DNA of 1,276 nucleotides from Escherichia coli (GTDB lineage: Bacteria > Pseudomonadota > Gammaproteobacteria > Enterobacterales > Enterobacteriaceae), in assembly GCF_003334255.1 (NCBI RefSeq), contig NZ_QOWU01000167.1; one strand, written 5' to 3'. Below the pieces are notes generated by a model. The model did no database searches. It saw only the letters and a program-made list of their open reading frames with translations, and was not told the origin of the DNA. Within the stretch, counting starts at the first letter, position 1, and each line of letters opens with the position of its first letter. A program made the position numbers and the translations under genes. This document shows positions 1 through 1,276 of the stretch, piece after piece.

Positions 1-47
1 AGCTGATAGAAACAGAAGCCACTGGAGCACCTCAAAAACACCATCAT
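1..47 (-). CDS. 5' end of the downstream ORF (partial, runs off the left edge); by position possibly the SctR-type export apparatus gene, unverified
   Basis: Tandem ATG ATG at 47..42 begins 3 nt after the sctQ TAG and reads MMVFLRCSSGFCFYQ... to the edge. An alternative GTG at 51..49 overlaps the TAG by 1 nt in another frame and reads VYDGVFEVLQWLLFLSA..., which is more hydrophobic. With 15-17 codons neither can be assigned; neither obviously matches the SctR N-termini I remember. Confidence 0.3.
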   Translation of the reverse strand, partial: MMVFLRCSSGFCFYQ

Positions 48-50
48 ACA

Positions 51-359
51 CTAAATCAGTAAGTTGGCAGCATCACCCACTTCAACAAGTTCGCCATAGC
101 CAGTTAGCGCGCCATTTACACGTATTTCTATATTTTTCTCAGATTCAGAAAGCAGAGATATTATTCTTTTTGCACAGAGTTCGTCTATTTCATATAGATT
201 CATTATTTTCTTACCAAGAACAAACTCAATTTTTACAGGCAAGTCTTCAAAACTATTAATCATCTGATCGTCATTTTCATCATAAATCTCACTCTCGTTT
301 TTTTTGATATCAAAATCATCTGTTTCAAAATCTTCCTCGTACTCAAAATGATCAGCCAT
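51..359 (-). CDS. sctQ: Predicted internally initiated C-terminal product SctQ-C (102 aa, acidic linker plus SpoA2 domain)
   Basis: In-frame ATG at 359..357 (Met203) is preceded by GAGGAG at 371..366 with a 6-nt spacer; the SD is embedded in codons P-E-E-L-K. The position matches the internal start reported for SctQ homologues (about codon 203 in SpaO, as I recall). Product would be MADHFEYEEDFETDDFDIKKNESEIYDENDDQMINSFEDLPVKIEFVL...NLLI. Confidence 0.5.
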   Translation of the reverse strand: MADHFEYEEDFETDDFDIKKNESEIYDENDDQMINSFEDLPVKIEFVLGKKIMNLYEIDELCAKRIISLLSESEKNIEIRVNGALTGYGELVEVGDAANLLI

Positions 360-965
360 TTTTAACTCCTCTGGATAAATTAAATCACAAATTTTTGTAT
401 TATAAATAACCGCATAAGCCAAATTATTTGAGATTAATAAAACATCACCAACTTCAATATCAACAAGACTTCTGTAACATGTTTTACTAAATCCAATTAC
501 AAAATGAATGGAGCAATATAACGATTTTTTGTCTAACGCTGGAGCGTTTCCGTATTGGCAGACTGTGACTTTATCTAACCAAAGATTCAATTCCCCTGTC
601 CATATTCTTATTAGTGGTTGAGCAGGGCTCAATACTCCATCAAATACTTTACCTACGCGCAAACGATTATATTTTAGTTCAGGATGCTTTAGATTTAACG
701 GGGAACTGGATAAACTGAGGCATTCCCCTATTAACCTTTCCGTTTCTGGCATTAAAGCCATCCCAGCGAGCTCAGATGAAATTAAGGGAAATATTTCTCC
801 AAGCAATACCCATCCAGACCAGCTGCCACTCTCTTCTGCTATCGGTAGCCATTTAGCACTAAATTCGGGCATTAATAATGCAACATCTTCGCCATTTTCT
901 TTCCAATTTTGAAAAGTGGTTTCAAACGTATGAGTGTTTCGATTTACTTTCCTCAGACCGAACAT
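51..965 (-). CDS. sctQ: Type III secretion sorting-platform / cytoplasmic ring protein, SctQ family (SpaO/Spa33/YscQ-like), complete
   Basis: Complete ORF from the six-frame track: ATG at 965..963, TAG at 53..51. An in-frame TGA lies 9 nt upstream of the ATG, so the N-terminus cannot extend further. The C-terminal ~65 aa (LPVKIEFVLGKK...NIEIRVNGALTGYGELVEVGDAANLLI) has the FliN-like SpoA signature, and an upstream SpoA-like block (SIHFVIGFSKTCYRSLVDIEVGDVLLI) matches the two-SpoA architecture of SctQ. Length (304 aa) and motif layout resemble Salmonella SpaO as I remember it (LPVKLEFVL; FVIGSS...IGDVLLI). Homology is from memory, not a search. Confidence 0.85.
   Translation of the reverse strand: MFGLRKVNRNTHTFETTFQNWKENGEDVALLMPEFSAKWLPIAEESGSWSGWVLLGEIFPLISSELAGMALMPETERLIGECLSLSSSPLNLKHPELKYNRLRVGKVFDGVLSPAQPLIRIWTGELNLWLDKVTVCQYGNAPALDKKSLYCSIHFVIGFSKTCYRSLVDIEVGDVLLISNNLAYAVIYNTKICDLIYPEELKMADHFEYEEDFETDDFDIKKNESEIYDENDDQMINSFEDLPVKIEFVLGKKIMNLYEIDELCAKRIISLLSESEKNIEIRVNGALTGYGELVEVGDAANLLI
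366..372 (-). promoter_or_regulatory. Internal ribosome-binding site (AGAGGAG) for the SctQ-C start
   Basis: Minus-strand sequence aGAGGAGttaaaaATG: consensus-strength SD 6 nt upstream of ATG 359..357, inside the sctQ reading frame. Confidence 0.5.
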
Positions 966-1084
966 TAACTTTCATCCTTCTGATCGTTTTCGAATTTGCT
1001 TTCATTTTCTTGCTCCTCATAAGGCTGATGTCGTTGTCCTTGTCGTTCATCTTGCTCAGTCAATACCCAACGTTGTGCTGTAAC
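965..1084 (-). other. Orphan 39-codon open frame ending in TAA that overlaps the sctQ ATG (TAATG); possible relic of a decayed upstream sctP-like gene
   Basis: Minus frame 1084..968 is open (VTAQRWVLTEQDERQGQRHQPYEEQENESKFENDQKDES) and its stop at 967..965 overlaps the sctQ ATG. It has no ATG or GTG start and is bounded upstream by TGA, TAA and TAG at 1087..1085, 1090..1088 and 1099..1097. No homology established. Confidence 0.2.
975..981 (-). promoter_or_regulatory. Ribosome-binding site of sctQ (AGAAGGA)
   Basis: Minus-strand sequence cAGAAGGAtgaaagttaATG: AAGGA core 9 nt upstream of the sctQ ATG at 965..963. Confidence 0.45.
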
Positions 1085-1142
1085 TCATTATGAAAACTAT
1101 TTAATTCCCTCATCATTGATAAGGTTGGACATCTCTTTCAAC

Positions 1143-1276
1143 ATGAGAGTCATTGAAGCTTTCGACCAATTTAGCGGAATGATAGGGCTTGGCGCTTCAG
1201 GTAATGACTCCAACTTATTGATAGTGTTTTATGTTCAGATAATGCCCGATGACTTTGTCATGCAGCTCCACCGATT
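1143..1276 (+). CDS. Possible 5' end of a divergently oriented plus-strand ORF (partial, product unknown)
   Basis: Plus frame with codon starts at 1029, 1032, ... has no stop from 1029 to the window end (82 codons). First ATG at 1143 gives MRVIEAFDQFSGMIGLGASGNDSNLLIVFYVQIMPDDFVMQLHR... No convincing SD upstream (an AAGG at 1121..1124 is too far). Could equally be a chance open antisense frame. Confidence 0.2.
   Translation, partial: MRVIEAFDQFSGMIGLGASGNDSNLLIVFYVQIMPDDFVMQLHR

Follow-up and report, generated by a model that had tools for sequence, protein, structure and literature searches.

Why does a short piece of Escherichia coli DNA contain so little G+C? The stretch in question, here called the window, comprises 1276 bp with a GC content of 36.99% and is the reverse complement of the entire contig QOWU01000167.1 (GCA_003334255.1); it carries a gene for the cytoplasmic ring protein SctQ of a type III secretion system. 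An earlier interpretation made from the letters alone, hereafter the sequence-only reading, had taken the AT richness as the mark of a horizontally acquired island. The answer is that the composition very probably was inherited from a foreign island, ETT2 (the second type III secretion system of E. coli), and that the window is an ETT2 scrap bounded by two copies of the insertion sequence IS1 in the chromosome of an E. coli or Shigella strain. Little is at stake in this finding, which is correct but ordinary: the low GC content and foreign origin of the window are textbook properties of ETT2, reported since its first description from the E. coli O157:H7 genome (PMC3977695), and the fragment is a decayed one.

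Identity and anatomy of the fragment

In pairwise BLAST against the chromosome of E. coli 300709 (NZ_CP025903.1), the core of the window (positions 78 to 1199) is identical over 1122 of 1122 nt. A megablast search of 5426 complete E. coli genomes, in collections from which Shigella chromosomes were absent, found bases 72 to 1199 with 99.9% identity in thousands of chromosomes, and 2688 of the genomes contain at least 80% of the window; the single BLAST mismatch, at position 76, falls in an IS1 end, and the ends of the window match IS1 everywhere. In complete genomes, a type III secretion cluster lies between yqeG and the tRNA-Gly gene glyU, and the core occupies its glyU end. Its genes are annotated in 300709 as YscQ/HrcQ (epaO), a SpaN/EivJ remnant (20894-21013, labeled in RefSeq as "SpaN/EivJ family ... 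missing N-terminus"), and a fragment of a glycoside hydrolase family 15 (GH15) gene. ETT2 had been named in the sequence-only reading as an example of a low-GC locus, and the segment indeed is ETT2. The same reading held that composition and context do not identify the host; the identical chromosomal core does, as E. coli sensu lato. The features of the window are as follows.

1..77, minus strand: IS1 terminus, insA-proximal side with the left inverted repeat (IRL), exactly 77 nt, identical at 77/77 nt to IS1 in 300709 (11442-11518, reversed)
78..1199, no strand: ETT2 core, 1122 nt, 36.3% GC, matching the common eiv-deleted allele of ETT2 at its end nearest glyU
51..965, minus strand: chimeric sctQ (epaO) open reading frame (ORF), 304 aa, from the ORF list
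359..371, minus strand: candidate internal SctQ-C start, read from the sequence
965..1084, minus strand: 3' remnant of eivJ (SpaN/EivJ needle-length determinant), from the RefSeq annotation of the identical segment
1097..1199, minus strand: last 33 codons plus stop of the GH15 gene (pkgA/ygeQ), coordinates transferred from the ETT2 loci of 300709 (L001), L015, and strain HCP17S3_I4 (L003)
1200..1276, minus strand: IS1 terminus, insB-distal side with the right inverted repeat (IRR), exactly 77 nt, 100% identical to 300709 (12133-12209, reversed)

The reference for both IS1 ends is the annotated IS1A of strain 300709, used in pairwise BLAST and direct inspection. The left terminus includes the left inverted repeat plus 22 nt from the start of insA (GTG at window position 22, read leftwards), and the body of the element continues past the contig end; the right IS1 likewise runs rightwards past the contig end. 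Both copies lie on the minus strand and are therefore direct repeats bracketing the 1122-bp core. Their 77-nt flanks most likely mark the points at which the assembler broke inside the IS1 repeat, and equal overlaps of 77 nt would be expected from a de Bruijn graph with k = 77. An insertion sequence terminus of 77 nt at both ends of a short contig thus signals an assembly break at a repeat rather than island composition, and the attribution of island composition to the whole of positions 1 to 1276 holds for the core but overlooked that both ends are IS1.

The identical core with both junctions occurs in three other assemblies or runs, with IS1 flanks of 118/119, 104/81, and 28/28 nt. Because these sibling contigs share the core and the junctions with differing IS1 flank lengths, the double-junction arrangement is real and recurs in some lineage. 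An exact look-up of the 304-aa ORF product returned matches solely on contigs of <2 kb, and a gene fragment at the contig end in L006 gave a weak match to DDE_Tnp_IS1. Carriers of the chimeric ORF include GCA_965136505.1, GCA_001299315.1, SRR1840538, and ERR3331260.

In the core, eivJ has lost its 5' part, and the genes from eivI to eivF are missing; the scar of this deletion lies at approximately positions 1084 to 1096. The gene order reported for strain Sakai is epaO-eivJ-...-eivF-ECs3735-pkgA (PMC3977695), and measured against this list the window allele is the ETT2 isoform with a deletion from the 5' part of eivJ through eivF.

What has been published on ETT2 accounts for the composition. 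The island measures 29.9 kb, adjoins glyU, and has a G+C content of 36.9% compared to 50.8% for the chromosome, from which horizontal transfer was inferred (PMC3977695, PMC11068852). It is related to SPI-1, a pathogenicity island of Salmonella (PMC9241512, PMC4700944), is lacking in phylogroup B2 and decayed in the majority of strains (PMC9241512, PMC7058095), and its presence at glyU in Escherichia albertii dates the acquisition before the split of E. coli and E. albertii (PMC4700944). According to the literature, ETT2 genes are repressed by H-NS, in keeping with the silencing that AT-rich foreign DNA usually undergoes. The island would accordingly have been acquired horizontally at tRNA-glyU before the two species diverged, and within a chromosome of 51% GC it has retained roughly 36% GC together with its foreign codon usage. 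The fragment in the window is non-functional debris from the attrition of the island, in which the tail of SctQ/EpaO was lost to the left IS1, eivJ to eivF were deleted, and the GH15 gene was severed by the right IS1. We infer from the position of the identical core in complete genomes that the segment is chromosomal in the source genome as well.

Base composition and codon usage

Four stretches of 50 kb from elsewhere on the chromosome of 300709, which carries the identical segment, served as the host baseline and provided 98 host gene proxies. This sample has a GC content of 50.7%; cut into pieces of 1276 nt, it gives a mean of 50.7% and a standard deviation of 5.5%, and only 2.6% of the pieces lie at or below 37.0% (z = -2.5 for the window). 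Across the 41-kb locus of 300709, the block from yqeH to ygeQ has 35.4% GC, compared to 46.7% in the left and 50.0% in the right flank. The borders are sharp steps in the 1-kb profile, from about 36 to 38% to 44 to 54% across tRNA-Gly and from 37% to 44 to 48% at yqeG.

Within the window, the GC fractions of successive 100-nt blocks are 0.45, 0.33, 0.30, 0.27, 0.27, 0.39, 0.36, 0.44, 0.44, 0.35, 0.40, and 0.42. The lowest blocks (27%) cover positions 301 to 500, and the highest (45%, positions 1 to 100) owes its value to being mostly IS1 and not island. The range of 30 to 45% given by the sequence-only reading was therefore right at its top, but the bottom reaches 27%; its value of near 33% for the body of sctQ fits the C-terminal two-thirds of the gene (positions 101 to 700, about 32%), but not the whole ORF, which has 35.6%.

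The codon usage of sctQ, too, is that of ETT2 and not of the host. GC contents at codon positions 1, 2, and 3 of sctQ are 46, 32, and 28%, compared to 58, 42, and 58% for the host gene proxies. The third-position value (GC3; 28.0%) contrasts with 57.5 ± 7.8% in the host (z = -3.8), where only 1 of the 98 proxies is lower. Three low-GC3 outliers in the host sample, i.e., an ISAs1-family transposase, a leucine-rich-repeat pseudogene, and a TIR-domain anti-phage reverse transcriptase, are themselves accessory-looking. Measured as Karlin codon bias B, sctQ lies at 0.583 from the host pool, a value reached by 3 of the 98 host genes (0.316 ± 0.102), and at 0.246 from the other ETT2 genes. Compared to the host, CTG makes up 5% versus 49% of the leucine codons, ATA 48% versus 10% of the isoleucine codons, and AGA plus AGG 55% versus 8% of the arginine codons. 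GC3 values of 26 to 38% were also obtained for eight further ETT2 ORFs, among them intact apparatus genes.

Both properties that the sequence-only reading proposed to compare with the host, GC content and codon usage, thus deviate strongly from the 300709 sample, and instead of a host sharing the composition of the window, one with half of its bases G+C and with different codons was found. Together with the identity to ETT2 and the sharp GC borders next to a tRNA gene, they bear out the step from AT richness to a horizontally acquired island.

Some observations nevertheless weigh against this explanation. The GC baseline stems from another E. coli strain with the identical segment and not from the source genome. 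The source may also be a Shigella strain; Shigella lies inside E. coli, and the GC contents of the two are about equal. Because the contig stops within IS1 at either end, the segment may have left the glyU locus. Finally, the dinucleotide distance delta* of the core is 0.113, compared to 0.079 ± 0.029 for host pieces, 12% of which are equally far, the fragment being too short for this test; the dinucleotide signature is not significant at a core length of 1122 nt, and the case for an island therefore rests on GC content and codon usage.

SctQ/EpaO and the IS1 junctions

Codons 1 to 296 of the SctQ ORF (window positions 965 to 78) come from ETT2, and the last 8 codons plus stop (GDAANLLI, positions 77 to 51) come from the IS1 end. 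The uninterrupted allele encodes 315 aa and ends in ...GELVEVDDKLGVEIHSWLSGHNNVK, whereas the window ORF ends in ...GELVEVGDAANLLI before its stop. The junction thus removes 19 residues from the native C terminus (DDKLGVEIHSWLSGHNNVK), among them the LGVEIHxWLS strand that aligns with Salmonella SpaO, and the C-terminal SPOA2 (FliN-like) domain is incomplete. Family membership is nevertheless clear, with 447.7 bits against NCBIfam model NF006018 (cutoff, 223) over profile positions 3 to 286 of 303, compared to 489.5 bits over positions 3 to 303 for the intact allele, with 176.9 bits against TIGR02551 (cutoff, 100.8), and with precomputed Pfam matches to SpaO_N and FliMN_C. With this C terminus lost, sctQ of the window is a truncated pseudogene and does not encode a working member of the family. 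Gene callers report a normal 304-aa "SctQ" protein, but this product is an artefact-like chimera, the last eight codons of which were contributed by the IS1 end.

The assignment to the Inv-Mxi-Spa type made by the sequence-only reading is confirmed by the ranking of solved relatives, which is led by the SPOA2 domain of Salmonella SpaO (4yx1, E = 1e-14) and continues with Shigella Spa33 (4tt9) and YscQ-C. A candidate start of the short product SctQ-C is formed by GAGGAG (positions 371 to 366), a 6-nt spacer, and the ATG of Met203 (A at position 359). A strongly acidic linker of low complexity (EYEEDFETDDFDIKKNESEIYDENDD, positions 260 to 360, minus strand) starts within the blocks of 27% GC and joins the N-terminal part of SctQ to the C-terminal FliN-like domain. 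RefSeq calls sctQ "frameshifted" in the complete genomes examined, e.g., in 300709 (CDS 19947-20934, 988 nt). The annotated CDS begins 40 nt upstream of the ATG at window position 965, and the frameshift would lie in this upstream extension (MKANSKTIRRMKV...), because the reading frame is intact for 315 aa from that ATG and is aligned by the family profile from position 3 on.

On the other side of the core, the right IS1 severs the GH15 gene 33 codons from its end, and a 38-aa ORF (1097-1213) begins inside IS1. The corresponding gene is annotated as a hypothetical protein in 300709 (21026-21796), is present as an intact 536-aa GH15 gene in L015 (6838-8448), and ends in IS1 in HCP17S3_I4. In the latter strain, IS1 lies at the same nucleotide as the right junction of the window and is flanked by a 9-bp target-site duplication, GGCGCTTCA. 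The contig shows one side of each IS1, so the duplication was read from HCP17S3_I4 only. Because of it, the IS1 of that strain is recognized as a simple in situ insertion; if the left IS1 was a simple insertion too, its duplication would be CACTTCAAC. The window (1191-1200) and HCP17S3_I4 (7120-7905) share this IS1 site despite 5 differences between their cores (99.6% identity), and the shared site is either a hot spot that was hit twice or a junction that was spread by recombination.

Among the 5426 complete E. coli genomes, the exact left junction was found in none, the exact right junction as one contiguous match in 1, and the combination of both insertions in none. Strains PI24 and NCTC_13148 were checked as carriers of the arrangement of the window, and neither has it. 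HUE1-type strains (L002), which match positions 1 to 1199 in one piece, were considered as sharing the left junction and rejected; their IS1 lies 24 nt deeper in sctQ and represents an independent insertion. Across the six complete genomes examined, IS1 is found at six distinct sites, which lie inside ETT2 or at its edge.

L002: 6055-6077
300709 (L001): 11442-12210
HCP17S3_I4 (L003): 7129-7896
L009: about 6001-6768
L014: about 5110-5880
L015: about 5001-5770

Several of the IS1 copies bound large deletions, e.g., yqeH|IS1|sctQ in HUE1-type strains and ygeG|IS1|sctQ in NCTC_13148. IS1 looks like a main agent of ETT2 attrition, of which the window is one more example. IS1 prefers AT-rich targets, and its role in the attrition of this island perhaps owes to that preference. 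With respect to other signals in the window, an unremarkable six promoter-like sites were counted (3.9 ± 1.6 expected), no terminators were found, and no Rfam family reached its gathering score.

Alternative origins and related systems

The direct orientation of the two IS1 copies around a 1122-bp core raises the question of whether the unit is a Tn9-like composite transposon, moved or movable from glyU, in which case the composition would say nothing about its present surroundings. The exact double-junction arrangement is found in at least four independent assemblies or runs and is absent from the complete genomes, which is compatible with such an element. One clonal lineage, however, explains the recurrence equally well, the segment has no selectable cargo, the right-hand IS1 of HCP17S3_I4 occupies the identical site as a simple insertion, and in situ insertions and IS1-bounded deletions are common elsewhere in ETT2 (L001, L002, L009, L014, and L015). 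A transposon is therefore very improbable, and two IS1 insertions in situ are the likelier explanation. It is highly improbable that a Tn9-like element has in fact gone from glyU or that the truncated SctQ or SctQ-C with its IS1 tail was retained for a function, e.g., by disturbing another sorting platform, type III or flagellar.

The AT richness could also be secondary if a pseudogenized fragment had drifted toward A+T by mutational bias after inactivation. Bacterial mutation is AT biased, and the genes of the window are all broken or truncated, but the core shows not a single substitution compared to the uninterrupted allele, the low GC3 is shared by the eight other ETT2 ORFs with their intact apparatus genes, and the Sakai cluster as a whole has 36.9% G+C (PMC3977695). 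Codon positions 1 and 2 share the bias, in a gene whose product still reaches 448 bits with the family model of SctQ, and a bias at all three codon positions argues for a long history in an AT-rich donor and not for recent decay, which makes secondary drift barely credible. The sequence-only reading had named plasmids besides islands as carriers of such loci, and a Mxi-Spa-type injectisome on a virulence plasmid like that of Shigella or enteroinvasive E. coli would likewise explain the AT richness, namely, as plasmid composition: the entry region of the Shigella virulence plasmid pINV also has about 34% GC (PMC9241512), and IS1 is abundant on plasmids, with at least 5000 plasmid records matching the IS1 ends. 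The core, however, is 100% identical to chromosomal ETT2, and its matches in the plasmid collection are solely records of 4.8 to 4.9 Mb, i.e., mislabeled chromosomes. Two such records, NZ_OL790696.1 and NZ_CP134663.1, evidently are E. coli chromosomes filed as plasmids. The nearest SctQ proteins of true plasmids are only 27 to 33% identical in tblastn with the intact 315-aa EpaO (Providencia, 32.7%; Shigella Spa33, 27%). A plasmid origin is almost certainly wrong, and of the two proposed carriers the chromosomal island is left, the core being held by no true plasmid record. The AT richness is thus best explained as the inherited composition of chromosomal ETT2.

Among known systems, the Tn9-type composite transposon resembles the window in its two IS1 copies of the same orientation around a short segment, but for the unit described here there is no evidence of movement or of a cargo under selection, and 77 nt of each IS1 are visible. 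The Shigella pINV Mxi-Spa locus is a member of the same injectisome family and likewise AT rich, with about 34% GC (PMC9241512); its Spa33, in contrast, is plasmid-borne and shows 27% identity over 57% of the protein, whereas the locus of the window is chromosomal. Salmonella SPI-1 provides with SpaO the best solved relative of the protein of the window, which clears the NCBIfam equivalog cutoffs for SctQ, but it is a distant paralogous system of another host, and SpaO keeps the DxxLGVEIHxWLS strand that SctQ of the window has lost. IS elements riddle the Mxi-Spa locus of pINV, too. The closest counterpart is ETT2 itself, as described previously (PMC3977695, PMC11068852), with 100% identity over 1122 nt, the same order of epaO, eivJ remnant, and GH15 gene pkgA/ygeQ, a GC content of about 36 to 37%, and the same codon usage; the copy in the window differs by two extra IS1 elements, which truncate epaO at codon 296 and separate the GH15 gene from its last 33 codons.

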